In this document: positions 1 through 16,044 of the stretch, piece by piece
How the letters are laid out: every line of letters starts with the position of its first letter
Numbering within the stretch: the stretch's first letter is position 1
DNA from: a virus
Taxonomy: Duplodnaviria > Heunggongvirae > Uroviricota > Caudoviricetes
Direction: 5' to 3' (one strand)
Length of the DNA stretch: 16,044 nucleotides
IMG/VR virus record: IMGVR_UViG_2718217897_000010
Location: 1-16,044 of that record
Notes under the pieces: generated by a model
Told to the model about the DNA's origin: nothing
Seen by the model: only the letters and a program-made list of their open reading frames with translations
Database searches by the model: none
Translations under genes and position numbers: made by a program

Positions 1-642
1 TTATGTTTTTGCAATAGTTAAACCAGATCGTTTAATATACTCATCTAACGTGCCAGAGGTGTCATGTATTTTCGCAACATGATAATTGAGTAAGCTAATT
101 TCTTTAGTTTGTAATTTTGGTGGAGGAATATCCGCTCTACCGCCATCCACAGATACCAATAAAAACCTGTCTAGGAATGCTCCGTCGTAATAAAGCTCAT
201 ACCAATATCCAGTTGCTCTGGGATCTGGATAATTGTTAGCCCAATCTTCTATAAAATTTTCACATTGAATTCCTTCATCAATGAACTTGGCTCGAAAACG
301 AAGACGTGGGTCTTCTTTAAGGAATCGTTCGCTAGCCCATTCCCTTGAAATCCCATGCCAATCTTGAGATGGTTCAGTTTTGGGTATGAAATTTAAGATT
401 TCCTCATATGTCATATCTCTGACAGGTTTACGTTCTGGTAAAAAATATTCTGCTACCGATGGGCTGGCTAAGAACAATGAACTAAGCATTCCCAGAGCGA
501 ATGCGATAGGTTCTATATCAAATCCTGATATCCAAAAAAAAGCTGCTATCAAAGCGGCCCCGAAAAAAATCCCCCCCAATACTCTAAGGGGATGTTGATA
601 TTGTTTTATCCATAACCAGATTGGTGTTAACTTAATTTTCAT
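1..642 (-). CDS. hypothetical membrane protein (213 aa): two predicted N-terminal TM helices, then ~150-aa soluble domain
   Basis: Complete ORF with stop codon at 1-3 and ATG at 642. Hydrophobic stretches VLGGIFFGAALIAAFFWISGF and IAFALGMLSSLFLASPSV near the N-terminus. AT-rich coding sequence. No family recognised. Confidence 0.5.
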   Translation of the reverse strand: MKIKLTPIWLWIKQYQHPLRVLGGIFFGAALIAAFFWISGFDIEPIAFALGMLSSLFLASPSVAEYFLPERKPVRDMTYEEILNFIPKTEPSQDWHGISREWASERFLKEDPRLRFRAKFIDEGIQCENFIEDWANNYPDPRATGYWYELYYDGAFLDRFLLVSVDGGRADIPPPKLQTKEISLLNYHVAKIHDTSGTLDEYIKRSGLTIAKT

Positions 643-1153
643 CTGCCATTCCGATTTGTCTAACTTATTTAGAATTAAGAGGTTGAAATTAAGAATAGAT
701 AATCATACTCACTACGGGCTTTGAATTTTGATATTACAATTATTTCATTTTATTTTCAATTAATTATACGTTATTTATTGAACAAGTTTCCATGCCCTCA
801 GTTAACCAAAATGTCCGTTTCTAGCACACAGCAGCCCTATAGACAGTGGAGTAAAGTCATGGAGGATCGGTGGGAGGAGATGCAAATCCTCTCATACAAA
901 AAATACGTAAAATCTATAACAGCTGGAAATCATTCAATACTCGCACTATTGGAAGTTCACCAGCCAACCGCAGCACGTTCTTGCATACGACGTGCCTGCG
1001 GTTTCAACTCCCGCCAGCTCCACCAATCATGATTGGGTGGCGTAAGGATAATACCAACAAAAACAGCAAGTTATCAGTCCAAGCAGGACACCAACCAGAC
1101 GGTGAGGATACAAAAAAAGATACGCAAAGGAGCCGCGGTGCCCTAGTGACTTG

Positions 1154-1176
1154 AAAGCCCACAGATGTGGGCTTTT
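1154..1176 (+). terminator. putative rho-independent terminator (stem AAAGCCCAC / GTGGGCTTT, loop AGAT, followed by TTTTAT)
   Basis: Perfect 9-bp inverted repeat with GC core read directly from sequence; T-run on the plus strand. Not attached to any convincing upstream gene. Confidence 0.4.
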
Positions 1177-1368
1177 ATGGAATAAAGTACTTGAACCAAC
1201 AGCAAGAAATCAGTCTTGATGCTAAGTACTAGTGATGAAGCCACAACAACTGCTCTCATAAAAACGAAGACACTTATCGTGCCACCATCAAAATCTTTGT
1301 GAGTGTATCCATTTCTTTTTACTTGAACAGAGAAAACAATAATGCTGCTTATTTGCACAGTAAAATAA

Positions 1369-1388
1369 TACTGTATACAAACACAGTG
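1369..1388. promoter_or_regulatory. LexA (SOS) box-like operator TACTGTATACAAACACAGTG
   Basis: Matches the CTGT-N8-ACAG core and 16 of 20 positions of the E. coli LexA consensus TACTGTATATATATACAGTA. Overlaps plausible -35/-10 hexamers on both strands (plus strand TTGCAC-17-TACAAA). Confidence 0.5.
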
Positions 1389-1587
1389 TAGAGGAAGTTT
1401 TATGCATATTCCAACTAGCATGAATGTCTTTCTGTCATAAAATTAATGTCTGTTATAAGCAGTGAGCCCAACCGATGCATGCAGCACATAGCGAACCCAA
1501 ATTACAGCCTTTACAGCCACTATTGTTCACCATTAGACAGATGCGAACATTTTCCTGTATGAAGATATTTAGACTGCTTTTATTTGT

Positions 1588-2685
1588 CTAAAAATTCTCT
1601 CTCTTGTGCTGCATTTTACTCTTATTTTCAAGCATAAGAAACATTGCTGCATTTTGCTCCCAAGATATTTTAGATAAAAACATTTTTTTAGAAAATGATT
1701 GTTCCAATTCTCCCAAAAACGAATCAAGCCACCAATAATATTCCCATCCCTTAGTTGTTAATAAAGACTTGGCATTAAAATCCACTGTAACTACCAAACC
1801 TACTGAATAAATTGAAAATGAATTAAACTCTCTACCCAAATAAAGATTTCCAAATTTCATTGGTAGATTAGCCCCGAATCCCTCGAACACAGGGCGATAA
1901 TTAATCTTAAATCTTTTAGTAACAATACTTATACTAGAGTCGCTCTCTCTTGTGAGCGAACTACTTTTGGGAAGAACTATTTCAAAATGGTCAAAAATTG
2001 CGCCTCCATTGCCATATGCATATACAACTTTACCTATAGATGGTAAAGAACTATAATCCATAAATTGCTCACGTTCATCCATAGCTCTAGAAAAAGTATC
2101 AATAAATCTATTCCCCATAAGAACATCAGGAATACTTTTCCTATCTAGTTTAACCAAATAATCATCGGAAAAAGTTTCATCATCATTAAAATAGCTACTT
2201 AAATGAAGAGCAAGTTTTCTTAAAACATAATACTCAATCGCCTCAATAAATAGTGCATTTGCTTTCATTTTTTTGCTATTTATCCCCTTCCCTTTAAAAT
2301 CAAAAGCATAACCAATTGGCCCCTCAGTCCATGATTTATGAATAGCCTTATTTTCCGCGCATAATCCTTTTAGGTAACGGCTAACCTCTTCGGAAAAATC
2401 GTAGCCTTCAATTGATATCAACTCTTTTTTTTCATTGTCTAAACACACAACCCCCTCAAAATCATATTTCCCATTATTCATAGGATAGGCGTTACGCAGA
2501 AAGATTGTGGCACCTAAAATTATTAGTAGCGCACCAACAACAATCATTTTCAAAAATGACAAGTTAAAATAACCAACAACGCCTGATGACAGTATATTTA
2601 CGCCCAAGGCAATTAACACCGCAACAATGAACACTTCGAATATATTTGTTTTAACGGCTAGTAGATCTGCTATTTTTTTCTTCAT
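1588..2685 (-). CDS. hypothetical membrane-anchored protein (365 aa): two N-terminal TM helices plus ~300-aa soluble domain
   Basis: Long ORF in an AT-rich block. N-terminus MKKKIADLL followed by hydrophobic segments FIVAVLIALGVNILSSGVVGYF and MIVVGALLIILGATIFL. No recognisable catalytic motif. Confidence 0.6.
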   Translation of the reverse strand: MKKKIADLLAVKTNIFEVFIVAVLIALGVNILSSGVVGYFNLSFLKMIVVGALLIILGATIFLRNAYPMNNGKYDFEGVVCLDNEKKELISIEGYDFSEEVSRYLKGLCAENKAIHKSWTEGPIGYAFDFKGKGINSKKMKANALFIEAIEYYVLRKLALHLSSYFNDDETFSDDYLVKLDRKSIPDVLMGNRFIDTFSRAMDEREQFMDYSSLPSIGKVVYAYGNGGAIFDHFEIVLPKSSSLTRESDSSISIVTKRFKINYRPVFEGFGANLPMKFGNLYLGREFNSFSIYSVGLVVTVDFNAKSLLTTKGWEYYWWLDSFLGELEQSFSKKMFLSKISWEQNAAMFLMLENKSKMQHKRENF

Positions 2686-2739
2686 AGTGCACCCAATCCA
2701 ACTTATACTCTCATCATTAGCCTACGGCCAAACTCAAAT

Positions 2740-2757
2740 TTGCACTCTTATGTGCAA
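2740..2757. promoter_or_regulatory. inverted repeat TTGCAC-N6-GTGCAA in the upstream region of the 365-aa gene (possible operator)
   Basis: Palindromic hexamers read directly, 55-70 bp upstream of the ATG at 2685 (minus strand). Function is inferred only. Confidence 0.2.
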
Positions 2758-3085
2758 TTGGACCCTCAACACTACAACTTTTATATCTTTATTACAATGC
2801 ATTAAATATAGAGTAGTTAGCTAAGTGCAACGATAGGACAGAATTGTACCCGAAGCACAATATCTACAAACGGTTTAACATTAGTTGCAAGTGCGGACCA
2901 CTTTTTCTATCTGCCTATATTTTCAGGCTGCTGCTGGTCGGTAGTTTCTATGTATAGCCGCTTTCACCGTCAATGACGCATAAAGTCTATCTTTCCCTAC
3001 TTACTGATGAATCAGAACGCGACATTCCACTCATCCTCAGAATCCCTCAGAAGGTTCAATATAACGCCAAGCACCGAAGTTCCGC

Positions 3086-3424
3086 TTATGAGTGAACATG
3101 ATGAACAACTATATCTTGCCCTGTTCTATGGGGATACCAACCACAATAGTGGGACAAACCGCCATTAATTAACTCATGCTCTAAATCTTCGTCCACCAGC
3201 ACGACAAGATGCCGCATACTGCGCCCCAGTCGGTCCAGTTTCCAGACCACCAGCGTATCACCTGCCGATAATGTCCTGAGCAGTTTTTTCAGTCCAGGCC
3301 TTTCGGACTTTGTACCGCTTATCTTGTCTTCAAAAATCAGCTCGCATCCTGCACAGTTCAGCGCATTACGTTGTAGATCTGTGTTCTGGTCATTTGTTGA
3401 CACACGTACATAGCCAATAAGCAT
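3086..3424 (-). pseudogene. DNA invertase (serine recombinase, Hin/Gin/Pin family), 3'-truncated
   Basis: Translation from the ATG at 3424: MLIGYVRVSTNDQNTDLQRNAL...GDTLVVWKLDRLGRSM, the classic invertase N-terminus including the catalytic Ser in RVSTNDQ. The ORF stops after ~112 codons and the C-terminal HTH DNA-binding domain is missing in all frames. The track ORF start at 3460 adds 12 non-homologous residues. Confidence 0.75.
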
Positions 3425-3450
3425 GGTAGATCTCCCTGACAAAAGCAGGA

Positions 3451-3843
3451 ATGATGCCATTTGCTCGTTATTTCTGCATTTTCATAAACGTTGGTTTGGG
3501 AGAAGCGGCCAAATTGCCTGCGATTAGTGGCTCTTTATCATCATCTGGCTGGATAAAAATCCCTGTTATAGAGGGGAAGTCTTTTATTATCCAATGGGGA
3601 AGAATCGGACCTTCTGATAGTAAAACTGGTGTTGCAACAGGAAGTTATCCTATTGCTTTTCCAAATTCTGCATTTATGGCATTTATTGCTGAAAAAACCG
3701 CAGTATCCACAGGCCCAATAGGTATTAATTCCTGGGGAGTATCCGAACTAACAAAAACAGAATTAAAGGCCATTTGTGCTGCAAGGACTATATCAACTTC
3801 AGCCGCAACTGAAACAGGTGATTTTCTGGTACTGGGATATTGA
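3451..3843 (+). pseudogene. side tail fibre C-terminal (variable, receptor-binding) segment; lacks the 5' constant part
   Basis: Contains IIQWG and PIAFPN motifs typical of lambdoid/Mu-type tail-fibre C-termini. Begins at the crossover site. Its stop overlaps the start of the downstream tail-fibre assembly gene (ATGA). No upstream constant tail-fibre region is present on this strand. Confidence 0.6.
3479..3504. other. invertase crossover site-like 26-bp imperfect palindrome (hix/gix/pix-like)
   Basis: TTTTCATAAACG-TT-GGTTTGGGAGAA. The reverse complement TTCTCCCAAACCAACGTTTATGAAAA matches about 20 of 26 positions of hixL as I recall it (TTCTTGAAAACCAAGGTTTTTGATAA). It lies next to the invertase gene and inside the 5' end of the tail-fibre segment, as expected for such switches. 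Confidence 0.45.
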
Positions 3844-4313
3844 GCTTCCATAAGGATTATAAAATGTCGAGCATAATATACTACAGCTCTATAAATAATG
3901 CATTTTACCCTGAGCATTTGAAACAAGAATATATTAAATCTAATTCTTTTCCAGCAGATGCAAAACCCGTTAAATATTCTGTTTTCGAAGAATTTGCACT
4001 TAAACCAGCACCAGAAGGAAAATACAGGTGCGTTGGTGAAGATGGAATGCCATCATGGGCAGATATTCCACCACCAACACATGAGGAACAGATTGCCGCA
4101 GCCGAATTGAAAAAGCAGCAATTGATTAACCAGGTCAACGAATACATGAACAGTAAACAATGGCCCGGTAAAGCGGCTATTGGTCGTCTGAAAGGTGAGG
4201 AACTGGCGCAATATAATCTGTGGCTGGATTACCTGGACGCACTGGAAATGGTCGATACTTCCAGTGCTCCAGATATTGAATGGCCTACGCCTCCGGCAGT
4301 TCAGGCCAGATGA
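3840..4313 (+). CDS. tail fibre assembly protein (Tfa family)
   Basis: 157 aa. N-terminus YYSSINNAFYPEHLKQEY and C-terminus LWLDYLDALEMVDTSSAPDIEWP are typical of Tfa/gpU-type chaperones. Translationally coupled to the fibre segment upstream. Confidence 0.8.
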   Translation: MSFHKDYKMSSIIYYSSINNAFYPEHLKQEYIKSNSFPADAKPVKYSVFEEFALKPAPEGKYRCVGEDGMPSWADIPPPTHEEQIAAAELKKQQLINQVNEYMNSKQWPGKAAIGRLKGEELAQYNLWLDYLDALEMVDTSSAPDIEWPTPPAVQAR

Positions 4314-4722
4314 CATCTGGCGCGGTGCTGGTATCAGTTGCCGTCACCGCGTCAATGTAATCCAGCACAGCGTTAAGGCGGGTTGTTTCTGTCTGCGTCA
4401 GTTTACGTCCGGCCTGCAATTTCAGTTGAATCAGACTGATGGAAGCCATTGCTGCATCAATTAGTAACTGGCGCTGTGCTTCTGCCGCGTCTACTGCGGC
4501 ACTGTGTTGTGCCTCAGTGTCTGTCACCCATTTCTCACCATCCCATTTATCGTATGGCGTTAACGGTGAAAGCGTGACATAACCGTCTTTGATGGCACCG
4601 ATATAATCCACTGTAACAGCTGCGCCATTTTCGATTGAGTAAACAGTCTCATTGCGATGGTCTTCTTCATGGCTCCATCCCTTACCTGTAAATATTGGCA
4701 TGGGGTAAGATTTCCGGCTCAT
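4285..4722 (-). CDS. tail fibre assembly protein (Tfa family), second copy in opposite orientation
   Basis: 145 aa. C-terminus AVLDYIDAVTATDTSTAPDVIWPELPEA is the conserved Tfa motif. Converges on the plus-strand Tfa with a 29-bp 3' overlap, as in Mu G / e14 P invertible segments. Confidence 0.75.
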   Translation of the reverse strand: MSRKSYPMPIFTGKGWSHEEDHRNETVYSIENGAAVTVDYIGAIKDGYVTLSPLTPYDKWDGEKWVTDTEAQHSAAVDAAEAQRQLLIDAAMASISLIQLKLQAGRKLTQTETTRLNAVLDYIDAVTATDTSTAPDVIWPELPEA

Positions 4723-5222
4723 GATTCGTTAATTTTCAGAAACGGGTTAGTGGCTTTCTTCTGCCCCGCCAGGCCAATCAGACGCTGGCGGCTGCTGGGG
4801 TCGAGTCCGAGCATTGCCCCCGTGCTGCTCATCTCGGACTCCTGTTCTTTTTTGGCGGTCAGCTCCGGATTTTTGACCCTGCCGCCCATTGCACCGGTGA
4901 TGGTGTTGCCCTGTATGGCAATATTTTTCACGGCACGTCGCCAGAACTCATAGGCCACGCACCACCGCTCAAGTACCGCCAGGTCAGTCACGCACAGCAG
5001 ACCCTGACCGCAGAGTTCTTTGGTTGTCAGTTGCCACATGATCGTGGCGAGAGGGAGATCTTCTTCAGCGAACCACTCCGGTGGCTCAACACCTTTGATG
5101 GGCGTAAAAACAGGTTCATCTTTGTTCAGGGCTCGCTTGCCGGGGTTTCCGGCCAGCGCCTTGCGCGCCGTTGGCTTGGGGCGACGCCCGGAACGCCCCG
5201 CCGTTCCAGCCATATGCGGCAC
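4719..5222 (-). CDS. phage terminase small subunit (P27-family-like)
   Basis: 167 aa. N-terminus MAGTAGRSGRRPKPTARKALAGNPGKRALNKDEP is characteristic of P27-type TerS. Its stop overlaps the start of the Tfa gene (ATGA), so no large terminase or structural genes follow. Confidence 0.65.
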   Translation of the reverse strand: MPHMAGTAGRSGRRPKPTARKALAGNPGKRALNKDEPVFTPIKGVEPPEWFAEEDLPLATIMWQLTTKELCGQGLLCVTDLAVLERWCVAYEFWRRAVKNIAIQGNTITGAMGGRVKNPELTAKKEQESEMSSTGAMLGLDPSSRQRLIGLAGQKKATNPFLKINES

Positions 5223-5338
5223 TCCTGGTTAAATTTCATTTTTCGCGGGTATAAAAAAACGATGGGGCGGGCAGTCCGGAAGACGTCAGGCCGCAGGGAT
5301 TTGACCCGCCCCTCCCCTCAAGCAGTTGAGAATTATTA
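5223..5338. other. putative cos / packaging-initiation region between HNH and terS
   Basis: Intergenic, with GC-rich inverted repeat GGGGCGGG (5264-5271) ... CCCGCCCC (5305-5312). HNH-cos-terS is the usual order in HK97-like cos phages (from memory). Confidence 0.3.
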
Positions 5339-5689
5339 TCACTTCAACCGTTCACGGGCCGTCTTCGCCTTATGACACGGCCAGCACAGACTCTGCAGAT
5401 TACGGTCGGCATCAGTGCCGCCATGCGCTTTAGGAATGATGTGGTCAACGGTTTTCGCCTCGCGCACCACACCGGCACGCAAACACAACTGACACAGGCC
5501 TTTGTCACGCTTCAGCACACGCGCGCGGATAACGTCCCACTTCGAACCATAACCGCGCTGATGACGGGATTGTCCTGGCTTGTATTGCTTCCAGCCTTCG
5601 CCTTTGTGTTGCTTGCAATAACCTGACGGGTCTGTGGTTGTCGATCGGCAGCCGCGAACACGGCAGGCTTTTGGTGTTCGTGGTGGCAT
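5339..5689 (-). CDS. HNH endonuclease (phage packaging-associated)
   Basis: 116 aa. Cys pairs CRVRGC and CQLC, plus DHIIPKAHGG ... NLQSLCWPCH, make up an HNH/zinc-finger motif. Located immediately upstream of terS. Confidence 0.8.
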   Translation of the reverse strand: MPPRTPKACRVRGCRSTTTDPSGYCKQHKGEGWKQYKPGQSRHQRGYGSKWDVIRARVLKRDKGLCQLCLRAGVVREAKTVDHIIPKAHGGTDADRNLQSLCWPCHKAKTARERLK

Positions 5690-5764
5690 TGAAATATTCT
5701 CTCTGATACTGCTCGCACGATATGCATAAAAACCTCCAACAGGCGGTTTATGTGTAGACGTATC

Positions 5765-6676
5765 TCAGTACTTAAATAAGAATTTGCTATTACTTTGAAA
5801 TTGAGATGGTGTGGTTGCAATCGGACTAGATGTCGCAGCTATCTCTTCAAGTAACTCAGCTTTCCAGACATGCCCTAGTTGCAAAGATTCACTATGCGAC
5901 ACTTTGTATTCTGCAGCACTAACGACTTGTTCTAAGAAAAGATCACTGTTTAGCATTTGCATACTTGCATAAACGCCAAGGAAATGAATTTTCATTCCCA
6001 TATCCATGATCATATTCCCTTCTTTTGTAAGATAACCACTGTGCGTGACATAGAATGCCGGAGAGCCTGACATTCCAGGGAAAGCAGAAATATCGACAAC
6101 TATTAATTTCTTCCCATCGAAATCGATATCTGGCTCACTCGCTAAGCTTCCTGTTTTCCATATTGGAAGGTAGTGAGTCGTGTCATGATAACCATGAGGA
6201 TATCCAATCATTACAACAGGAGATGAGGGGTTTATCTGGACATTAGGCAGTGTCGTTGTTTTTGAGACTACTTTTACTCCTGTGTTTACAAACAACTCTT
6301 GAGGCAAAGGCATCAAGATAATGTCTGCCTCTTTATCTGTGGGGTGCTCCAACCACAGCGGTGAACCATCTTTAAACAGAGGCATCGTATGTTTGAATAG
6401 TTTTCCGGTTTTATCTCTCAGCTGAATATCAATACTATCGCCTATAAATGGCTTTACACCCCTTTCGGATGGGCTGATTCCAGTTATTACATGATAGTTA
6501 GTTGCAAGGAAAATGAAACCATTGCTATGTTGATAAAAGAACCCAGTACCTAACGACTTTGACTCTCCATTAGACCTCAAAATTACTAAAGTAGTTACCA
6601 GAGATAGCGGCTGTACGTTTTGCATAAAATTCATCCAACATGAACTTCGATATAGGTTGTAAAAGCATACAATCAT
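5765..6676 (-). CDS. trypsin-like (chymotrypsin-fold) serine protease, cytoplasmic; start codon uncertain
   Basis: Candidate catalytic triad in the canonical order: His in ATNYHVITG, Asp in EADIILMPL, Ser in GMSGSPAF (GDSGGP-like). No signal peptide. AT-rich. Alternative starts at internal Met15 or Met18 (MNFMQNV). Confidence 0.6.
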   Translation of the reverse strand: MIVCFYNLYRSSCWMNFMQNVQPLSLVTTLVILRSNGESKSLGTGFFYQHSNGFIFLATNYHVITGISPSERGVKPFIGDSIDIQLRDKTGKLFKHTMPLFKDGSPLWLEHPTDKEADIILMPLPQELFVNTGVKVVSKTTTLPNVQINPSSPVVMIGYPHGYHDTTHYLPIWKTGSLASEPDIDFDGKKLIVVDISAFPGMSGSPAFYVTHSGYLTKEGNMIMDMGMKIHFLGVYASMQMLNSDLFLEQVVSAAEYKVSHSESLQLGHVWKAELLEEIAATSSPIATTPSQFQSNSKFLFKY

Positions 6677-6742
6677 TCCAGAAAATTCTTAACCAACTAT
6701 TTCCAATATATGAATCGCCAATTCCGATCTAGCTATATAACC

Positions 6743-7015
6743 TCACTTTTCAGCAGAGTTTTTCTCCGAAAGCAGGTGCTCACTCTTTCTAATGTCTAAC
6801 TTATCCCTATTACAAGACGCCAGCGCCGACAACAGGCTTACGTTCAAATCCAGGCTCCCACTCCATGTCAGCGGGTCGGGGATAGCTGGTTGCGGAGTTT
6901 CAGCGGTCAGATTCGCTAGTAGTGGTACCGCCGAAACTGGTACGTAAACTGTCCGCGTACCGGCGCAGCCGTTCAGCTGCACGAGCAGGAACAGGACGGG
7001 CAGCGCAATCATCAT
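6743..7015 (-). CDS. Rz1-like o-spanin (outer-membrane lipoprotein), overlapping the 3' end of Rz in a different frame
   Basis: MMIALPVLFLLVQLNGC followed by a proline-rich mature region (VPVSAVP, TPQPAIPDP). Starts inside Rz and runs past its stop. Lipobox LNGC is non-ideal and the signal peptide lacks a basic residue; the start may instead be the in-frame ATG at 7081. Confidence 0.4.
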   Translation of the reverse strand: MMIALPVLFLLVQLNGCAGTRTVYVPVSAVPLLANLTAETPQPAIPDPLTWSGSLDLNVSLLSALASCNRDKLDIRKSEHLLSEKNSAEK

Positions 7016-7292
7016 TCGCAAAAGCCATTTTGATATCAGCCTGGGTTCTCTGTGACTCCAGTGCGATCTGCTGTTTTGCATGCTGGTTAGCCTCCAGTAC
7101 TGTATTGACGATTTGTAGTGATTGCAGGACGTTATTAGTAATGGCAGTTGCCGATTTGGCATTTTGTACAGCCTCATCAGCACGTTTCTTTTCGTGCTGA
7201 TATTTGCTGTAGTAGTGGTTGGTTGACCAGATGAAAGAACAGACGACAGTTAAAAGGAAAGCAGCGATAATCAGCTTATAGCTCAACTTCAT
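6900..7292 (-). CDS. Rz-like i-spanin
   Basis: 130 aa with one N-terminal TM helix (LIIAAFLLTVVCSFIW) and a charged, probably coiled-coil periplasmic domain. Immediately downstream of the endolysin and overlapping it. Confidence 0.55.
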   Translation of the reverse strand: MKLSYKLIIAAFLLTVVCSFIWSTNHYYSKYQHEKKRADEAVQNAKSATAITNNVLQSLQIVNTVLEANQHAKQQIALESQRTQADIKMAFANDDCAARPVPARAAERLRRYADSLRTSFGGTTTSESDR

Positions 7293-7752
7293 TTACCACC
7301 CCACCAGCCTCTTTAAACCTGGCAATCAGGTCACCGATTTTATGTTCATACTGACCATAACCAGCGCCCGGCAGTGAAGCCCAGATATTGCTGCAACGGT
7401 CGATTGCCTGACGGATATCACCGCGATCAATCATCGGTAAAGCGCCACGCTCTTTAATCTGCTGTAATGCCACGGAGTCCTGGCTTCTGGGAGAGAAGTC
7501 TTTCAGCCCTAGCTGCTTGCGGTAGGCATCCCACCAACGGGAAAGAAGCTGGTAACGTCCGGCTGCTGTTGATTTGAGTTTCGGGTTTAGCGTGACAAGT
7601 TTGCGAGGATGATCGGAGTAATCAGTAAACAGTTCACCACCGACAATGACATCATAACCGTGGTTACGTGTCGGTTGTCGCCCGTTATCCGTTCCTTCTG
7701 ACCATGCAACCATATCCAAGAAAGCTTTACGCTGGGAATTTAGTGCCTGCAT
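7276..7752 (-). CDS. R: endolysin, lambda R-like lytic transglycosylase
   Basis: 158 aa. NSQRKAFLDMVAWSEGTDNGRQPTRNHGYDVIVGGELFTDYSDHPRKLVTLNPKLKS ... is near-identical along its length to lambda R as I recall it, including the catalytic Glu in WSEGT. Confidence 0.9.
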   Translation of the reverse strand: MQALNSQRKAFLDMVAWSEGTDNGRQPTRNHGYDVIVGGELFTDYSDHPRKLVTLNPKLKSTAAGRYQLLSRWWDAYRKQLGLKDFSPRSQDSVALQQIKERGALPMIDRGDIRQAIDRCSNIWASLPGAGYGQYEHKIGDLIARFKEAGGVVNEVEL

Positions 7753-7755
7753 AAA

Positions 7756-8082
7756 TTACTCCTTCGAGCTACCAAATTTGTTACCGATTACTCGCATTGC
7801 AGCCCCACGAATTGCATCGACACCAATCAGCCCAACACCGCCACCAATGGCAACAGAAAGAGATTTAGGCCATCCGACATACTCAAGAGCGGATGCAAAA
7901 GTCAGCGTCAGAGCACCACAGAGCAAAATCTCGAGCGTTTTTCGTTTCCAGCCACCACCACCGCCAAAATAGGCAATGCGCAAGCCAGCCATAACGATCG
8001 ACATAATCACTGCGCCCAGCGGTGTGTCTCCACGCCACCAGCTCTGGAACAACTCCAGCCAGGTATTTGGGTTATGAGGCAT
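7756..8082 (-). CDS. holin (class I, three TM segments, lambda S-like size)
   Basis: 108 aa with three hydrophobic segments and a charged C-terminus (NKFGSSKE). Sits directly upstream of the endolysin with 3-bp spacing. Confidence 0.7.
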   Translation of the reverse strand: MPHNPNTWLELFQSWWRGDTPLGAVIMSIVMAGLRIAYFGGGGGWKRKTLEILLCGALTLTFASALEYVGWPKSLSVAIGGGVGLIGVDAIRGAAMRVIGNKFGSSKE

Positions 8083-8234
8083 TTGTAGTTATCTCTCACC
8101 TCGCTGATACAGCAGGTGCAAATTGAGGGAACATCATGTACAGCAAATTAGAAGCGGAAACGTCAAAGAAGCCGAACCAATGGATAACTGCGGAATAGAC
8201 CAGGACCAACGAATCCCCAGCCCCAGAAACGACA

Positions 8235-8256
8235 AAACCCGCTCGACGGCGGGTTT
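8235..8256 (-). terminator. putative intrinsic terminator on the minus strand upstream of the holin (tR'-like position)
   Basis: Hairpin AAACCCGC-TCGACG-GCGGGTTT. On the minus strand the GC stem is followed by TTTTGTCGTTTCT. Confidence 0.35.
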
Positions 8257-8367
8257 AAGCTGTGTGGCGAAGTAACCACTCTTAACACGATACAATAATT
8301 TTTGCGTACGCGTTAGCGTTTTTGTAAGATTAACAAATAAATCGAAAAATCATAATCGGATGATTTC

Positions 8368-9390
8368 ATGGCAAAATTAAATGCTAGCGAAAGACTCGTT
8401 ACTCATCATAGTCTGACCATTGACACAAAGTTTAGAACCAAGGCAACACAAGAGGTAAAAGCCCAGTGTATATGTCCTGTTCCGGAAATGTACATGCTTG
8501 CCCCATTGATTGTTAAACAAAAGGGACTCGTTCATTCATATGATTCTGGGAATATTGTAGTTACTCTCCAAGATGTACAACTTTATCCTTTACTTCCAGA
8601 TAACTCACCCACGCATATTGTCCTTCTTATTAATAGTGTTGATAAAAATGGAAGTACTACCGTTGTAAAAAATATAAATACTAATGAACGCGTTGAAATC
8701 CAACCAAAATATGAACAAGGTGAAGGCTATGAAGTTTCTACCTATGTTGTCATATCATTAAATGGAAATAAAAGAACCTATGATATGATTTGTACATCTA
8801 CCCCAGGTGTATCTACGGCCCGGTTAAATAGTTTTTTAGACAAAATTCTCTTTGAAGTGGCGAAAGACAATGAAGACTTATTTACCGCAAAACATCCAAC
8901 TAACGTTATTTCTGCAACATCAAAAAAAGAAGTAAAAATACGATACAAACCAATATTTGAATTTACAGGAATGTTAGACAAGGAGCTTTTTAATAAAATA
9001 AGCCAAAAAGGATTATCAGATGTCATATTAGTCAAGGATCAATTCGGAACAATTAATGCTCCTGATGTTAACTCACCTTACATTCCGACTGAAAGTACAT
9101 TAAAATTACTTCCAAATCATGGTGACAATGTTATTGGATGGATTAAAAATGTAGCATCTCATTTCAATAAAAAAATGAATGGTGGTTATGATAAATTAAA
9201 GGTTAAATTCCAAGATCCTGAAACAAATAAACCAAGGCAGGTTGATTTCAAAACCTCAAACATCAATCTTAATAATTTAGAAAAAACATTTATTAAGAAA
9301 AGCATTATCGATAACTTTAATTCGCGCCTGAAGGATTCATATGTTAAAATTGAGCTAGAGTTTGTTGTGAAAATGATAGATTTGATGTGA
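8368..9390 (+). CDS. hypothetical soluble protein (340 aa), first gene of an AT-rich two-gene cargo operon
   Basis: ORF with ATG at 8368. Strongly AT-rich, Asn/Lys/Ser/Thr-rich, no TM segment, no recognisable NTPase, nuclease or NTase motif. 7-bp gap to the downstream gene, which has its own SD (GTGAGG). Confidence 0.6.
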   Translation: MAKLNASERLVTHHSLTIDTKFRTKATQEVKAQCICPVPEMYMLAPLIVKQKGLVHSYDSGNIVVTLQDVQLYPLLPDNSPTHIVLLINSVDKNGSTTVVKNINTNERVEIQPKYEQGEGYEVSTYVVISLNGNKRTYDMICTSTPGVSTARLNSFLDKILFEVAKDNEDLFTAKHPTNVISATSKKEVKIRYKPIFEFTGMLDKELFNKISQKGLSDVILVKDQFGTINAPDVNSPYIPTESTLKLLPNHGDNVIGWIKNVASHFNKKMNGGYDKLKVKFQDPETNKPRQVDFKTSNINLNNLEKTFIKKSIIDNFNSRLKDSYVKIELEFVVKMIDLM

Positions 9391-9397
9391 GGTTATT

Positions 9398-9982
9398 ATG
9401 CCAATACTTTCAGTTTTCTCTCATCTAGGCAAGCCGTTTGGATATCTTTTTATTAAAGGTATTAGCGGCAAAGCTGCATATGATTGGGTAGCGCCAATTC
9501 TACTTACTTCTATCACAGCAGTACTTTTCATTCTATTAAAAATCCCTGTCAAAGATTTATTTGATGACAATGGTTTCATTAAATCAATCGTTTCATTTAT
9601 CTCTAACCTACCAGGGTTTTATATTGCCGCTCTGGCCGCCATAGCAACTTTCAATAGAGCTGAGATTGATTTACCATTGATTAGCAATGAAAGAAATGCC
9701 TCTATTGAAATAAAAGTAACAAAAGAAAATGGAAAAGTAGTAAATTCAGAGGAGGTTCTGACCAGACGATTATTTCTTTGCATGCTATTCTCTTTTTTAA
9801 CAGCATTAAGCATTGTTATAATAATACTTAATGCTATATTTTCACCATTAATCAATGTCTATCAAAACAGTTTTGTTTTAATGGTTTATACTGTTGTATT
9901 TACTTTCCTCGTTTGGCAACTCTTAGTATCAACTTTCTTTGGATTATATTATCTCGGAAACAGAATTCATATGAATTATTAA
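9398..9982 (+). CDS. hypothetical integral membrane protein (194 aa, four predicted TM helices)
   Basis: Hydrophobic segments at about residues 30-49, 64-85, 125-148 and 159-186, with a ~40-residue charged loop between TM2 and TM3. Coupled to the upstream 340-aa gene. Confidence 0.6.
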   Translation: MPILSVFSHLGKPFGYLFIKGISGKAAYDWVAPILLTSITAVLFILLKIPVKDLFDDNGFIKSIVSFISNLPGFYIAALAAIATFNRAEIDLPLISNERNASIEIKVTKENGKVVNSEEVLTRRLFLCMLFSFLTALSIVIIILNAIFSPLINVYQNSFVLMVYTVVFTFLVWQLLVSTFFGLYYLGNRIHMNY

Positions 9983-10002
9983 GCCCTACAGGGGCTTAAT
10001 AA
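9976..10002. repeat. 11-bp perfect inverted repeat TTATTAAGCCC-TACAG-GGGCTTAATAA spanning the stop codons of two convergent genes
   Basis: Read directly. The left arm contains the TAA stop of the 194-aa gene (9980-9982) and the spacer/right arm contains the TAG stop of the Q-like gene (9986-9988). Confidence 0.6.
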
Positions 10003-10378
10003 TCAACAAAATACCTTCAATCACTCCTATTGCTGCTTGAAGTTGTTTTCTGATTGACCCGTCAGAGCATTTCCGTTTCTTTGCTATTGAACGGAGTGAA
10101 ATACCGATAACAAAGTGAGCAATGATCAGTTCATATTCTTCTGGCTTATATTTCCGCATTCGCGCAACACAGCTGTCAATCATGATTCCTTCATCATCAT
10201 CGCATTGTTGGCGTGTTTTCTTTCCATGAGGTAGTAAACCTTTAAACCCTGCAGCAACAGGCTGCCAGTCCACACCACTGTTAACCGCGGGAAAATTTCC
10301 GAAGAAGACACCACCGAAACGCCGATGTATGTCAATCGCGGTGGTCGCCTGACTATTCTGCAGGAAGACCAGGGACAA
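9986..10378 (-). CDS. Q-like late antiterminator (phage 21/QuuD-type); non-ATG (TTG) start, possibly defective
   Basis: 130 aa containing AAGFKGL, CDDDEGIMIDSCVARM and CSDGSIRKQLQAAIGVIEGIL, which resemble phage-21-type Q proteins as I recall them. The ORF begins with TTG directly after an in-frame TAA; the first internal ATG is at codon ~66. Confidence 0.5.
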   Translation of the reverse strand: MSLVFLQNSQATTAIDIHRRFGGVFFGNFPAVNSGVDWQPVAAGFKGLLPHGKKTRQQCDDDEGIMIDSCVARMRKYKPEEYELIIAHFVIGISLRSIAKKRKCSDGSIRKQLQAAIGVIEGILLIIKPL

Positions 10379-10497
10379 TTACTGACTCTTGCCGGTGAGC
10401 CTGACGGAAAATTACGCGCAGCAGGTCATTAATATCGTTCTTAATTAACTGATTATTTATCTCATCACTGAATATCTTTATATAGTGAGGACTTATT

Positions 10498-11322
10498 ATG
10501 TCTCAGAACTTAGACGCAACCGCAATTAATCAAATCCATGCCCTTATTTCTGCTCAGGGTGTTAATGAAATTATCAGTAAGATTGGTGCCGATGCTGTGG
10601 CATTGCCTGAGAATTTCCGCATTCATGATCTGGAAAAATTTAATTTAAATCGCTTCCGTTTCCGTGGTGCGCTTTCCACTGCCAGCATCGATGACTTTAC
10701 CCGTTATTCTAAAGATCTTGCAGATGAAGGCACCCGCTGCTTTATCGATGCTGATAATATGCGTGCCGTCAGTGTACTTAACCTGGGTACTATTGATGAA
10801 CCAGGTCACGCAGATAACACCGCCACTCTCAAACTGAAAAAGACAGCACCGTTCTCTGCCCTGTTGTCTGTTAACGGCGAGCGTAACTCCCAGAAGTCAC
10901 TGGCAGAATGGATCGAAGACTGGGCCGACTACCTTGTGGGCTTTGATGCTAATGGTGATGCCATTCAGGCAACAAAAGCGGCTGCGGCAGTCCGTAAAAT
11001 CACGATTGAAGCAAACCAGACCGCTGATTTTGAAGACAATGACTTCAGCGGCAAACGCTCCCTGATGGAGTCTGTCGAAGCGAAGACCAAAGATATTATG
11101 CCTGTGGCATTTGAATTTAAATGCGTTCCGTTTGAAGGCCTGAAAGAACGTCCGTTTAAATTACGCCTCAGCATTATCACTGGCGATCGTCCTGTACTGG
11201 TTCTGCGCATTATTCAGCTGGAAGCAGTGCAGGAAGAAATGGCTAACGAATTTCGTGATCTGCTTGTTGAGAAATTCAAGGACAGCAAAGTAGAAACCTT
11301 TATTGGTACTTTCACCGCCTGA
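10498..11322 (+). CDS. DUF2303 / YfdQ-like prophage early-region protein
   Basis: 274 aa with good SD (GTGAGGA). Sequence resembles the CPS-53 prophage YfdQ family (from memory). Confidence 0.7.
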
Positions 11323-11334
11323 TTTCATTACTGC

Positions 11335-11356
11335 AAATGCCCCTGCGGGGGCATTT
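11335..11356 (+). terminator. putative terminator hairpin AAATGCCCC-TGCG-GGGGCATTT after the YfdQ-like gene
   Basis: 9-bp perfect inverted repeat 13 bp past the stop. The T-run is short and partly inside the stem, so strength is uncertain. Confidence 0.35.
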
Positions 11357-11449
11357 ATGGAAACGTAATTGACTCAATAATCGCCGGATGGTGAGGGCTT
11401 CCTTTTACCAGAATTCAGCGCGGTGCAGCGCATATACGTGGAGAACAAA

Positions 11450-11986
11450 ATGTCATTTATTAAAACTTTTTCCGGGAAGCATTTTTATTATGACAGGATA
11501 AATAAAGACGACATCGTTATTAACGATATCGCGGTTTCTCTTTCAAATATCTGTCGCTTTGCAGGGCATCTTTCACATTTCTACAGCGTTGCCCAACATG
11601 CGGTGCTTTGCAGCCAACTGGTACCGCAGGAATTTGCTTTTGAAGCGTTAATGCATGATGCAACAGAAGCGTATTGCCAGGACATCCCGGCGCCACTGAA
11701 ACGCCTTCTTCCTGACTATAAACGGATGGAAGAAAAAATAGATGCAGTAATCCGTGAGAAATACGAGTTGCCCCCGGTTATGAGCACGCCTGTGAAATAT
11801 GCCGATCTAATCATGCTGGCAACCGAACGCCGTGATCTCGGGCTTGATGATGGCTCTTTATGGCCTGTACTGGAAGGTATCCCGGCAACAGAGATGTTCA
11901 AAGTTATTCCACTGGCACCGGGCCATGCCTACGGGATGTTTATGGAACGCTTCAACGAGTTATCGGAATTACGCAAATGTGCATAA
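11450..11986 (+). CDS. HD-domain metal-dependent phosphohydrolase (YfdR-like 5'-deoxynucleotidase family)
   Basis: 178 aa from the ATG at 11450, preceded by GGAGA. Contains the HD motif in ALMHDATEAY. The track ORF start at 11423 is GTG and adds 9 residues. Confidence 0.75.
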   Translation: MSFIKTFSGKHFYYDRINKDDIVINDIAVSLSNICRFAGHLSHFYSVAQHAVLCSQLVPQEFAFEALMHDATEAYCQDIPAPLKRLLPDYKRMEEKIDAVIREKYELPPVMSTPVKYADLIMLATERRDLGLDDGSLWPVLEGIPATEMFKVIPLAPGHAYGMFMERFNELSELRKCA

Positions 11987-12855
11987 CTCATGTAGTTAGT
12001 TTTTCTGGCGGGAGAACATCCGCATATCTTGTTCACCTGATGGAAGAACAAAGAAAGGCTGGCAATAACGTCTGCTACATCTTTATGGATACCGGTTGCG
12101 AACATCCGCTGACATACCGCTTTATCCGGGAGGTTGTGAAGTTCTGGGACATACCACTAACTGTGTTACAGGTCGATATAAATCCTGAGCTTGGGCAGCC
12201 AAATGGTTATACAGAATGGGAGCCAAAGGATATTCAGACACGAATGCCGGTGCTTAAACCGTTTATGGACATGGTTAAAAAGTACGGCACGCCATACATC
12301 GGCGGCGCGTTCTGTACTGATAGGCTAAAACTCATCCCTTTCACGAAATACTGCGATAACCATTTCGGGCGAGGTAATTACATCACATGGCTGGGTATTC
12401 GTGCAGACGAACCCCGTAGGCTGAAACCGAAATCGGGCGTCCGGTATCTTGCCGAGCTGTCAGATTTTGATAAGTCGGATGTTATCCGGTGGTGGCGAAA
12501 ACAACCTTTTGATTTGCAAATCCCGGAGCATCTCGGGAACTGTGTTTTCTGCATCAAAAAGTCAACGCAAAAGCTGGGGCTTGCATGTAAAGACGAACCA
12601 GGTCTGATGCGAGTTTTTAATGAGCTGGTTACAGGCAAACACGTCAGGGATGGTCATCGCAGAACAGGTAAAGACATTATGTACCGTGGTCACCTGACGC
12701 TTGACGGAATTGCCAGAATGTCTGCCAACAGCGACTACAGAAATTTGTATCAGGCGATGGTACAGGCCAGGCGATTCGATACCGGCTCGTGTTCAGAGTC
12801 ATGTGAAATCTGGGGTGATCAATTGGAATTGGAATTCAAAGAGGTAGGGGTATGA
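11977..12855 (+). CDS. PAPS-reductase-like (PP-loop ATP pyrophosphatase superfamily) protein
   Basis: PP-loop motif SFSGGRTS near the N-terminus. Start MCITHVVSFSGG at 11977 overlaps the upstream stop. C-terminal cysteines (CVFC, CSESC). Confidence 0.7.
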   Translation: MCITHVVSFSGGRTSAYLVHLMEEQRKAGNNVCYIFMDTGCEHPLTYRFIREVVKFWDIPLTVLQVDINPELGQPNGYTEWEPKDIQTRMPVLKPFMDMVKKYGTPYIGGAFCTDRLKLIPFTKYCDNHFGRGNYITWLGIRADEPRRLKPKSGVRYLAELSDFDKSDVIRWWRKQPFDLQIPEHLGNCVFCIKKSTQKLGLACKDEPGLMRVFNELVTGKHVRDGHRRTGKDIMYRGHLTLDGIARMSANSDYRNLYQAMVQARRFDTGSCSESCEIWGDQLELEFKEVGV

Positions 12856-13196
12856 CAACCGAAATTAACTACCATGCACTGCTTGAGCGCGCACGGAATA
12901 AAGTGCAGAGCATTGAGTTCGCCTTAACACAGAGTGCATTCGCTGAGATTCGCGCTGAGCTTGAAAATGATTTAGAACTGGCACGGATTGCACTGGCATC
13001 TCTGGAAGTTGAGCCAGATGAACGCGCAGCCTATGAATTATTTATGGAAAAGCGTTTCGGTAAAACAGTCGATCGTCGGAGAGCAAAAAACGGCGATAAC
13101 GAATACATGGCATGGGATATGACTCTCGGTTGGATCGTCTGGCAGCAACGAGCTGGTATCCATTTTTCAACAATGTCACAGCAAGAGGTGAAATAA
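12852..13196 (+). CDS. hypothetical early-region protein (114 aa)
   Basis: Translationally coupled on both sides: ATGA overlap with the upstream gene and TAATG overlap with xis. Confidence 0.55.
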   Translation: MTTEINYHALLERARNKVQSIEFALTQSAFAEIRAELENDLELARIALASLEVEPDERAAYELFMEKRFGKTVDRRRAKNGDNEYMAWDMTLGWIVWQQRAGIHFSTMSQQEVK

Positions 13197-13546
13197 TGGA
13201 GCCATACAGCCTCACACTCGATGAGGCCTGTCATTTTCTCAAGATATCCAGACCGACTGCCATTAACTGGATACGCACAGGGCGTCTTCAGGCAACACGC
13301 AAAGATCCCACTAAGAATAAATCTCCTTACCTCACAACACGACAAGCCTGCATTGCGGCTCTTCAGTCTCCGCTGCATACTGTCCAGGTGAGCGCGGGTG
13401 ATGGCATAACAGAGGAAAGAAAATGTCACTCTTCCGCAGAGGTGAAATATGGTACGCCAGTTTCACATTGCCGAACGGTAAAAGATTTAAACAGTCTCTT
13501 GGAACAAAGGACAAAAGGCAGGCGACAGAACTCCATGACAAGCTAA
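13196..13546 (+). CDS. xis: excisionase (P22 Xis-like)
   Basis: [38 protein letters not shown] is an HTH excisionase N-terminus. About 116 aa, overlapping the 5' end of int in another frame, as in P22. Confidence 0.7.
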
Positions 13547-14586
13547 AGGCTGAAGCATGGCGGGTCAGCAAACTTGGTGAAATACCTGATATAACGTTCG
13601 AGGAAGCGTGTGTCAGGTGGCTTGAAGAGAAAGCACATAAAAAATCACTGGACGATGACAAAAGCCGGATCGGATTCTGGCTTCAACATTTCGCAGGAAT
13701 GCAACTAAGAGACATTACTGAATCAAAAATTTATTCAGCAATGCAGAAAATGACGAACCGGCGTCATGAGGAAAACTGGAAACTCAGGGCAGAAGCATGC
13801 AGAAAAAAAGGGAAACCTGTTCCAGAATACACGCCAAAACCAGCGTCCGTTGCAACGAAGGCTACGCATCTTTCATTTATAAAGGCCCTACTAAGAGCCG
13901 CAGAGCGTGAATGGAAAATGCTGGATAAGGCACCAATTATTAAAGTGCCTCAACCAAAGAATAAACGGATCCGCTGGCTGGAGCCCCATGAAGCACAAAG
14001 GCTGATTGATGAATGTCCGGAGCCATTAAAGTCTGTTGTTGAATTTGCACTGGCAACAGGCTTAAGACGCTCGAACATCATCAACCTTGAATGGCAACAA
14101 ATAGACATGCAGCGCCGGGTGGCATGGATAAACCCGGAAGAGAGTAAATCAAACCGCGCAATTGGCGTTGCGCTGAATGATACTGCATGTCGCGTATTGA
14201 AAAAACAAATCGGGAATCATCACCGTTGGGTATTTGTGTACAAGGAAAGCTGTACCAAACCAGACGGAACGAAAGCGCCAACGGTCAGGAAGATGCGGTA
14301 TGACGCAAACACAGCCTGGAAAGCGGCGCTGAGACGGGCTGGTATTGATGATTTCAGATTTCACGACTTGAGACACACCTGGGCAAGCTGGCTGGTTCAA
14401 GCCGGAGTCCCGTTGTCAGTGTTACAGGAAATGGGAGGCTGGGAGTCTATCGAAATGGTTCGTCGATATGCTCACCTTGCACCTAATCACCTTACCGAAC
14501 ACGCACGGCAAATAGACTCGATCCTGAACCCATCGGTCCCAAATTTGTCCCAGTCAAAAAATAAGGAAGGTACTAATGATGTGTAA
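13423..14586 (+). CDS. int: tyrosine site-specific integrase (P22 Int-like, 387 aa)
   Basis: N-terminus [49 protein letters not shown]-terminal catalytic region [39 protein letters not shown] carries the conserved H-x-x-R and Tyr. Ends 14 bp from the tRNA 3' end. Confidence 0.9.
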
Positions 14587-14600
14587 CTTATTGATTTAAA

Positions 14601-14676
14601 TGGTGCCGATAATAGGAGTCGAACCTACGACCTTCGCATTACGAATGCGCTGCTCTACCAACTGAGCTATATCGGC
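14601..14676 (-). tRNA. thrW: tRNA-Thr (anticodon CGU)
   Basis: The reverse complement folds as a canonical cloverleaf: acceptor stem GCCGATA/TATCGGC, anticodon loop TTCGTAA, T-arm GGTTCGACTCC, 3' CCA encoded. Confidence 0.95.
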
Positions 14677-14790
14677 CCTGAAAGGACATGTTCACGAACG
14701 TGAATCACGGTGGACAAGGTTAAAACTAACCGGGCGATGCGTCAATGGCCTTGTGAATCAAATGGCTACTTTTGCATCACCCGGTTTTAT

Positions 14791-16044
14791 TTACGCACGA
14801 ATGGTGTAATCACCAATGCCGATCCACTTGTAAGTGGTCAGTGCTTCCAGCCCCATTGGGCCACGTGCGTGCAGTTTTTGTGTGCTTACCGCCACTTCCG
14901 CACCCAGTCCAAACTGGCCGCCGTCGGTAAAACGCGTAGAGGCGTTAACGTAAACAGCGGACGAATCCACTTCGTTAACAAAACGCTGGGCGTTGCGCAT
15001 ATCGCGGGTCAGGATCGCATCGGAGTGTTGCGTGCCGTGTTCACGAATATGGGCGATGGCATCGTCAAGATCGCTGACGATTTTGACGTTCAAATCTAAT
15101 GACAGAAACTCATCGTCATACTCTTCGGCTTTAACCGCCACCACCTTCGCGGGGCCTGCCTGCAACTGTGTCAGCGCAGCTGCATCTGCGTGTAATGTCA
15201 CGCCGCTTTCCGCCATTTGTTTGCTTAATACGGGCAGGAAGCTATCGGCGATGTTTTTATTCACCAGCAACGTTTCTACCGTATTACATGTGCTCGGACG
15301 CTGAGTTTTGGCGTTGACGATCACTTTTAATGCTTCAGCGATCTCTGCACTTTCATCAACGTAAATATGGCATACGCCTATACCACCTGTGATCACCGGG
15401 ATCGTCGACTGTTCGCGGCACAGTTTATGCAAACCAGCGCCACCACGCGGGATCAGCATGTCGATGTATTTATCCATACGCAGCATTTCACTGACCAGCG
15501 CACGGTCAGGATTATCAATCGCCTGCACGGCACCCGCCGGTAAGCCGCAGGATTTCAGGGCGTCCTGAATCACCGCCACCGTTGCAGCGTTAGTGCGACA
15601 CGTTTCTTTGCCACCGCGCAGGATCACCGCATTACCGGTTTTCAGGCACAGCGAAGCGACATCAACCGTCACGTTCGGGCGCGCTTCATAAATCACGCCA
15701 ATAACCCCCAGCGGTACGCGACGACGCTCAAGACGCAGGCCGCTGTCCAGTACGCCGCCATCGATTACCTGCCCCACCGGATCGGCGAGGTTGCACACCT
15801 GACGTACATCGTCGGCAATGCCTTTCAGCCGTGCGGGCGTCAGTGCCAGACGGTCAAGCATCGCTTCGCTAAGGCCATTGGCTCGCGCGTCAGCAACATC
15901 CTGGGCGTTAGCGTTGAGGATGATTTCGCTTTGTGCTTCCAGTTCATCGGCGATTTTTTCCAGCACGCGATTTTTTTCGCGGCTGGAGAGTTGCGCTAAT
16001 TTATACGAGGCTTGCTTCGCGGCAATGCCCATTTGTTCCAGCAT
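14791..16044 (-). CDS. proA: gamma-glutamyl phosphate reductase
   Basis: 417-aa [41 protein letters not shown] ... matches E. coli ProA along its full length (from memory). The ATG is at the window edge (16042-16044). Confidence 0.95.

Follow-up and report, generated by a model that had tools for sequence, protein, structure and literature searches.

A LexA operator between two cargo genes of an Escherichia coli prophage is most likely the relic of a dinI-like SOS promoter

We analyzed positions 1 to 16,044 of the IMG/VR virus record IMGVR_UViG_2718217897_000010 (Caudoviricetes); this whole stretch of 16,044 nucleotides (nt), referred to below as the window, is a piece of Escherichia coli chromosome in which an SfII/SfV-like prophage occupies thrW. 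At the far end of this prophage, the one with the tail-fibre genes, the order is a truncated pin invertase gene, a gene for a membrane protein of 365 amino acids (aa; 1588–2685, minus strand), a gap of 945 base pairs (bp) and a gene for a 213-aa protein (1–642, minus strand). The subject of this study is a LexA operator, TACTGTATACAAACACAGTG, located within the gap (1369–1388, plus strand). An earlier reading of the letters alone (hereafter, the original prediction) had described it as a strong LexA-box match in non-coding DNA between two left-end cargo genes, and had taken it to indicate an SOS-induced transcript in the cargo region. The gap indeed contains no intact gene and the operator is real; as to the transcript, the site is most simply explained as the relic of a lost dinI-like gene.

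The 20-mer agrees, as had been noted originally, with the LexA consensus TACTGTATATATATACAGTA at 16 of 20 positions (the mismatches are at positions 10, 12, 14 and 20), and its palindromic core, CTGTATACAAACACAG (1371–1386), has the form CTGT-N8-ACAG with an AT-rich spacer. The core is the sole instance of this pattern in the window. However, 0.2 such bare cores are expected per window and at least one was found in 35 of 200 shuffled windows, and the bare core alone is weak evidence. We scored the full site using a symmetrised matrix that yields values similar to the heterology index (HI-like values); the matrix was constructed from 24 LexA boxes of E. coli and is approximate. The HI-like values nevertheless came close to the published heterology indices (umuD, 2.2 vs 2.1; recA, 5.3 vs 5.0; yebG, 6.3 vs 6.3; polB, 12.5 vs 13). 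The heterology index of LexA-binding sites is below about 12–15. The site at 1369–1388 obtained an HI-like value of 6.3, which falls among those of proven SOS boxes of E. coli (sulA, 5.6; dinI, 6.0; yebG, 6.3; polB, 12.5), and none of the 200 shuffled windows contained a site as good (best shuffle, 8.5). The full 20-mer is no chance match.

A segment of about 70 bp that includes it (1342–1410) is, on sequence comparison, shown to be homologous to the promoter, Shine-Dalgarno (SD) sequence and first three codons of DinI-like genes at the ends of lambdoid/SfII-like prophages. In a blastn search with window positions 1330–1440, this segment was present in 1,809 of 5,426 complete E. coli genomes, with identities of 82–89% at the places sampled, and every sampled match lay at the 5΄ end of a coding sequence (CDS) annotated as 'DinI-like family protein'. 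The segment also stands 5΄ of dinI in the records of phages mEp460, cdtI and CP-1639 and of Stx1a- and Stx2c-converting phages, and the GenBank record of mEp460 annotates a promoter, TTGACA-N17-TAAAAA, at the homologous place. For example, E. coli TUM12357 has the identical 20-mer, flanked by aaaataa before it and tagagg after it, directly 5΄ of an intact 82-aa DinI-like CDS (PF06183, E 1.2e-19); another promoter copy, at a distance of about 750 bp, is orthologous to the site in the window. A scan of IMG/VR for the exact 22-mer TAATACTGTATACAAACACAGT returned 64 loci, at which the 22-mer was followed by an 82-aa DinI-like open reading frame (ORF) starting MRIEICIAKEKM... in 58, by a truncated dinI-like ORF in five and by a short stub, MHIPTSMNVFLS and a stop codon, in one. 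This last locus represents the element of the window again, with 99.5% identity over 1–3505. The same 22-mer gave no match in the GTDB species-representative genomes, a result that is uninformative on spread to other species.

The layout of this promoter is seen in an alignment of 10 copies (A1) from four unrelated upstream contexts, namely the prfC side, the ssrA side, the int side in mEp460 and a remnant of an AbiTii-domain gene described below. The intact copies in the alignment stand in at least three unrelated upstream contexts, and the homology begins exactly at the –35 hexamer and spans two CTGT...ACAG boxes, the SD sequence and ATGC.TATT. An intact copy consists of a –35 hexamer TTGAC/TA; LexA box 1 (.ACTGTTTAT...TACAGTT), which occupies the spacer; a –10 hexamer TAAAAA; LexA box 2, two nt after the –10 hexamer; GAGGGA; and then ATGCGTATTGAG. 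The site at 1369–1388 corresponds to box 2, and in the window it is identical at 20 of 20 positions to the box directly 5΄ of intact DinI-like genes. It begins two nt 3΄ of a –10 hexamer, TAAAAT (1361–1366, plus strand; aligned to TAAAAA of intact promoters), the same offset as from the annotated –10 hexamer in intact homologues, and on this spacing it should cover the likely transcription start of the relic promoter.

Other parts of the window copy have decayed. The position of the former –35 hexamer is now ATAATG (1339–1344, plus strand), which agrees with TTGACA at two of six positions, whereas TTGACA or TTGATA stands there in the other copies of the dinI-like promoter, and a plus-strand promoter scan gave no score to the window copy. 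In box 1, TGCTGCTTATTTGCACAGTA (1343–1362, plus strand), CTGT has become CTGC; its HI-like value is 11.6, compared with 5.2–7.5 in the other scored copies. Box 1 is the second-best LexA-like site of the window and stands immediately 5΄ of box 2. The CTGT-to-CTGT distance is 26 nt in the window and 28 nt in intact copies, because of a 2-nt deletion between the boxes. Downstream, an SD sequence inherited from the dinI-like gene, GAGGAAG (1391–1397, plus strand; aligned to GAGGGA), precedes the 12-codon stub ORF (1402–1440, plus strand). Within the stub, dinI-like sequence (ATGCGTATT) is matched by homology only in ATGC.TATT (1402–1410); beyond codon 3 no homology is left, and a recombination junction follows position 1410 (TTTTATGCATATTCCAACTAGC). 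The sequence 3΄ of this position is unrelated to dinI, and the stub ends at 1440 after entering the 3΄ flank of the 365-aa cassette (1411–1587, minus strand), which always travels with the 365-aa gene, in the same 11 E. coli genomes. A tblastn search with a DinI-like protein found no coding remnant anywhere in the window. In other words, the window retains the homology to dinI-like promoters, and it has neither a PF06183 ORF of about 82 aa downstream nor an intact –35 hexamer with two strong LexA boxes 28 nt apart.

The entire 1330–1440 query, that is, the stub version, was found in 11 E. coli genomes only, and these are also the 11 genomes with the 365-aa gene. The stub junction occurs in three arrangements. 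In arrangement A (loci L019–L023, prophage at prfC), a full two-box promoter leads straight into the stub and faces the 365-aa gene; for example, the copy at L019 6667–7071 has a TTGACA –35 hexamer and HI-like values of 5.3 for box 1 and 6.3 for box 2. In arrangement B (TUM12357), an intact dinI-like gene, an element homologous to window 810–1270, the decayed promoter and the stub follow one another in that order. Arrangement C (the window, E. coli FDAARGOS_1337 and L085) is without the dinI-like gene. The stub copies are 99–100% identical across the three arrangements, which indicates that the junction arose once and was then reshuffled by recombination within the promoter repeat. The arrangements may be related through a deletion between the two copies of the promoter or, alternatively, through recombination that exchanged promoters.

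On this evidence, we consider it probable that the site is box 2 of a prophage dinI-like promoter that has lost its gene. The dinI-like coding sequence would have been lost by recombination or cassette exchange, and the 3΄ flank of the unrelated 365-aa cassette would have been joined after codon 3. Because box 2 does not differ from that of intact copies and its score is in line with those of proven SOS boxes, LexA is predicted to bind it still in uninduced cells. On SOS induction, the crippled promoter (ATAATG-N16-TAAAAT) would give at most weak plus-strand transcription, and the transcript would encode the 12-codon stub only and enter the convergent 365-aa gene at its 3΄ end, in antisense direction. 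A residual SOS-induced antisense transcript from the window copy is possible but unsupported, and the site can be explained without a dedicated function. Several points weigh against this interpretation. Box 2, the SD sequence and the ATG are perfectly kept while the –35 hexamer and box 1 have decayed, which could hint at a retained function; the HI-like matrix is approximate; and in arrangement A the promoter is likely, on SOS induction, to transcribe strongly into the convergent 365-aa gene, where it may have a regulatory role. As to the first of these points, however, the stub copies are 99–100% identical, and the preservation of box 2, the SD sequence and the ATG therefore says nothing on selection.

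We further considered the possibility that the captured promoter has been exapted as an SOS switch, in which DNA damage induces a plus-strand RNA from it, antisense to the 365-aa gene, and the expression of this gene is lowered, through transcriptional interference or RNA pairing, at the start of SOS or prophage induction. The original prediction had proposed such a plus-strand transcript as one option, and its direction agrees with the polarity of dinI-like promoters: the relic promoter is aimed at the 3΄ end of the 365-aa gene, the likely transcript start is about 215 nt from the stop codon, and no plus-strand terminator-like site was scored before 1940–1959, which is inside the gene. Moreover, box 2, the SD sequence and the stub adjoin the gene in all three arrangements, and arrangement A has a full-strength two-box promoter. 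However, all copies share one junction, and recent common descent explains its retention; the –35 hexamer is destroyed in the window copy; and the plus-strand RNA from 1372 to 1600 is unstructured (z = +0.71). The 365-aa gene has 47 homologues, and a scan for LexA sites at six homologue loci (99–59% identical) found no LexA-like site near the gene in five, so that homologues in four other lineages lack one. These were the homologues from Serratia (77% identity), Citrobacter (59%) and Yersinia (65%) and those on two metagenome contigs with products 84–85% identical; only the near-identical E. coli copies (P0001) have a LexA box adjoining the gene. We regard the exapted switch as unlikely, and a more specific version, in which the captured promoter shuts down the 365-aa protein as a possible abortive-infection or membrane effector with two transmembrane helices, arrangement A being active in this respect and the window copy weakened, as slightly less likely again. 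The 44-codon plus-strand ORF at 1458, which had been named as a possible target, is part of the 3΄ flank of the 365-aa cassette and is not conserved. Its true start is the ATG at 1475, which makes it 38 codons long (to 1591), it has no SD sequence, and all seven close relatives (7/7) have an in-frame TAG at codon 30.

The other option originally put forward was a minus-strand transcript towards a 38-codon hydrophobic ORF (1259→1143) and on to the 213-aa gene, by analogy with type I toxin loci. A minus-strand promoter-like pair, TCTACA-N16-TATTAT, does overlap the box and matches at 9 of 12 positions, and the ORF has moderate hydrophobicity and is uninterrupted in the related locus L001. Of the promoter hexamers that had been proposed on both strands, only this minus-strand pair was scored; the plus strand has a good –10 hexamer, TAAAAT, and no –35 hexamer. 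However, promoter-like matches in the region are at the shuffle expectation (11 vs 9.2 ± 3.1), and the same minus-strand hexamers occur in every intact dinI-like promoter, since they are a by-product of the AT-rich palindrome. The ORF itself has no SD sequence, as had been suspected; it runs through a hairpin (1154–1175) and lies opposite the AbiTii remnant, in antisense orientation, and its counterpart in the homologous part of locus L007 is truncated to 14 codons. Two minus-strand terminator-like hairpins (1283–1269 and 1137–1123) intervene before the 213-aa gene, which has better promoter-like sites of its own. The likeness to type I toxin loci was not sustained either: the small ORFs are not conserved and lack SD sequences, and no antitoxin or other small RNA (sRNA) was matched by Rfam at the gathering score in 600–1700, although an undescribed sRNA may be present. 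We therefore judge a minus-strand SOS unit of this kind very improbable. A chance LexA-like palindrome in AT-rich non-coding DNA, unrelated to LexA, has hardly any probability left: shuffled sequence does yield the bare core (35 of 200), yet it never reached the score of the full site (0 of 200), and the homology of about 70 bp to dinI-like promoters in 1,809 genomes speaks against such an origin. The orphaned dinI-like promoter remains the reading that we prefer.

The orphaned promoter is not the only relic in the 945-bp gap. Positions 810–1270 (plus strand) correspond to a repeated element of prophage and island ends, recognized by local BLAST to loci L003, L005, L006 and L007 and to K-12 ssrA. 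Part or all of this element was present in 4,757 of 5,426 E. coli genomes, and a query with window positions 700–1700 matched a median of two places per E. coli genome. Within it, 902–1004 is the segment that comes after the dinI-like stop codon in other phages, and 998–1026 is a copy of the last 28–29 nt of ssrA, that is, an attachment (att) core. The ssrA 3΄-end copy resembles an att-site remnant of ssrA-integrating elements, although the present prophage is at thrW. A search of 600–1700 with Rfam at E ≤ 1 gave sub-threshold matches to CssrB and ssnA, with tRNA-Thr matched only elsewhere; the best of them, CssrB (969–1038, minus strand; 24.6 bits vs 76 at gathering), overlaps the ssrA copy. 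The hairpin at 1154–1175 is followed by a T-run (to 1178), as read from the sequence.

A frameshifted 5΄ remnant of an AbiTii-domain gene (1191–1296, plus strand) was recognized by its homology to L007. The window from 810 to 1270 has 83.6% DNA identity with L007, in which the AbiTii CDS (PF18864, E 3.7e-34) begins at the homologous position; by tblastn, the remnant shows 15/27 identities over 1213–1293. The intact AbiTii homologue in L007 sits among SMEK-domain and STM2766/2767 helicase genes. We also considered 824–1270 as a dinI 3΄ untranslated region or an sRNA and rejected this, as the segment is the island-end element with the ssrA att core together with the 5΄ remnant of the AbiTii gene. 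In E. coli O18 (L004), the promoter of a dinI-like pseudogene is joined to upstream DNA homologous to window 1271–1341, which indicates that this junction is older than the loss of dinI. DinI-like genes are often pseudogenes, through a frameshift or an internal stop codon, with both LexA boxes kept (for example, L004 2563–2780 and L024 1548–1796), so that dinI-like SOS promoters in an orphaned or decaying state are no rarity at the ends of E. coli prophages.

The product of the 365-aa cargo gene has two N-terminal transmembrane helices and a domain that is confidently modelled by AlphaFold2 (predicted local distance difference test score, pLDDT, 82); a fold search of the PDB with the model gave no significant match, and the protein belongs to no Pfam, PHROG, PADLOC or NCBIfam family. 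The Citrobacter homologue is also at a degraded prophage end and adjoins a putAbiC gene. A role in defence is plausible. In Yersinia nurmii (L015), a near-consensus LexA box, TACTGTATATAAAAACAGTA (7296–7315), stands beside the integrase gene of a P2/186-like prophage that carries CI-type repressor and Fil genes. As a link between the 365-aa family and LexA this box, the only LexA-like site of that locus, was rejected, being 2.2 kb from the homologue and unrelated. For the 213-aa protein, no Pfam, PHROG or NCBIfam family was found, and its match in PADLOC was marginal only (PDC-S50, E 8e-4).

The remainder of the window describes a defective prophage. A tRNA-Thr(CGT) gene (14601–14676, minus strand) and an integrase gene (13423–14586) lie at its other end, and the best phage match, Shigella phage SfII, covers 5339–14646. 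The terminase small-subunit gene (PF05119; 4719–5222, minus strand) abuts the tail-fibre-assembly gene (PF02413; 4285–4722, minus strand), which indicates that the head, tail and baseplate genes between them have been deleted; baseplate and tail genes are kept in the close relatives L001 and L085. The Pin-type invertase (3086–3460, minus strand) is truncated to 124 aa with only the resolvase N-terminal domain, its counterparts in relatives are annotated as partial pinE pseudogenes, and the switch for tail-fibre inversion has probably ceased to work. The corresponding end of the prophage in E. coli FDAARGOS_1337 (99% identity in this part) adjoins the pao genes. A gene pair at 8368–9982 (plus strand) matches the PADLOC candidate defence system PDC-M53A (E 2e-32) and PDC-M53B (E 3e-54). 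This pair has a low GC content (about 0.32) and lies between a Q-like antiterminator gene (9986–10378, minus strand; phrog_79) and the holin/lysis genes, the classic moron place downstream of Q.

These results correct the annotation of the site, in that a new SOS gene or toxin locus does not have to lie behind every LexA box that scores highly in prophage cargo DNA, and orphan LexA boxes of this kind will turn up in regulon prediction and in predictors of SOS-dependent prophages. The locus also illustrates how relics (an att core, the 5΄ end of an Abi gene and a promoter stub) are stacked beside live cargo genes at prophage ends. If the exaptation were true, the site would represent promoter capture that creates SOS-dependent antisense control of a prophage cargo gene.

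Among known systems, the prophage dinI homologues of Gifsy-1/2/3 are experimentally established as LexA-controlled and damage-induced, with the box next to the ATG (PMC3121763; PMC8072944 Table 1). The dinI-antirepressor-irsA operons of Gifsy-1, -2 and -3 in Salmonella thus follow the same logic, a LexA box by the ATG of a prophage dinI homologue, although no DNA-level similarity of their promoters to the window was detected, the phage search having returned E. coli phages only. The DinI-like promoters of E. coli lambdoid phages have the same operator and layout, with an identical box 2 and homologous SD sequence and start codon. In contrast to these intact prophage dinI loci, the window has lost the –35 hexamer, its box 1 has decayed, and the 12-codon stub is followed by foreign DNA, with no antirepressor gene next. 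The chromosomal dinI promoter of E. coli likewise places a LexA box, ACCTGTATAAATAACCAGTA, of similar strength (HI-like value 6.0 vs 6.3) before a DinI-family gene; however, it has a single box of different sequence, whereas the prophage version has two boxes that bracket the –10 hexamer and the window copy is without the gene. The tisB/istR-1 locus and other SOS-controlled type I loci resemble the window in having an intergenic LexA box with short hydrophobic ORFs nearby, but the small ORFs of the window are not conserved and have no SD sequence, no antisense sRNA family was matched, and the box belongs by homology to another, known promoter. We conclude that cassette exchange most likely left behind an ordinary fossil of a well-known element, the SOS promoter of prophage dinI-like genes.
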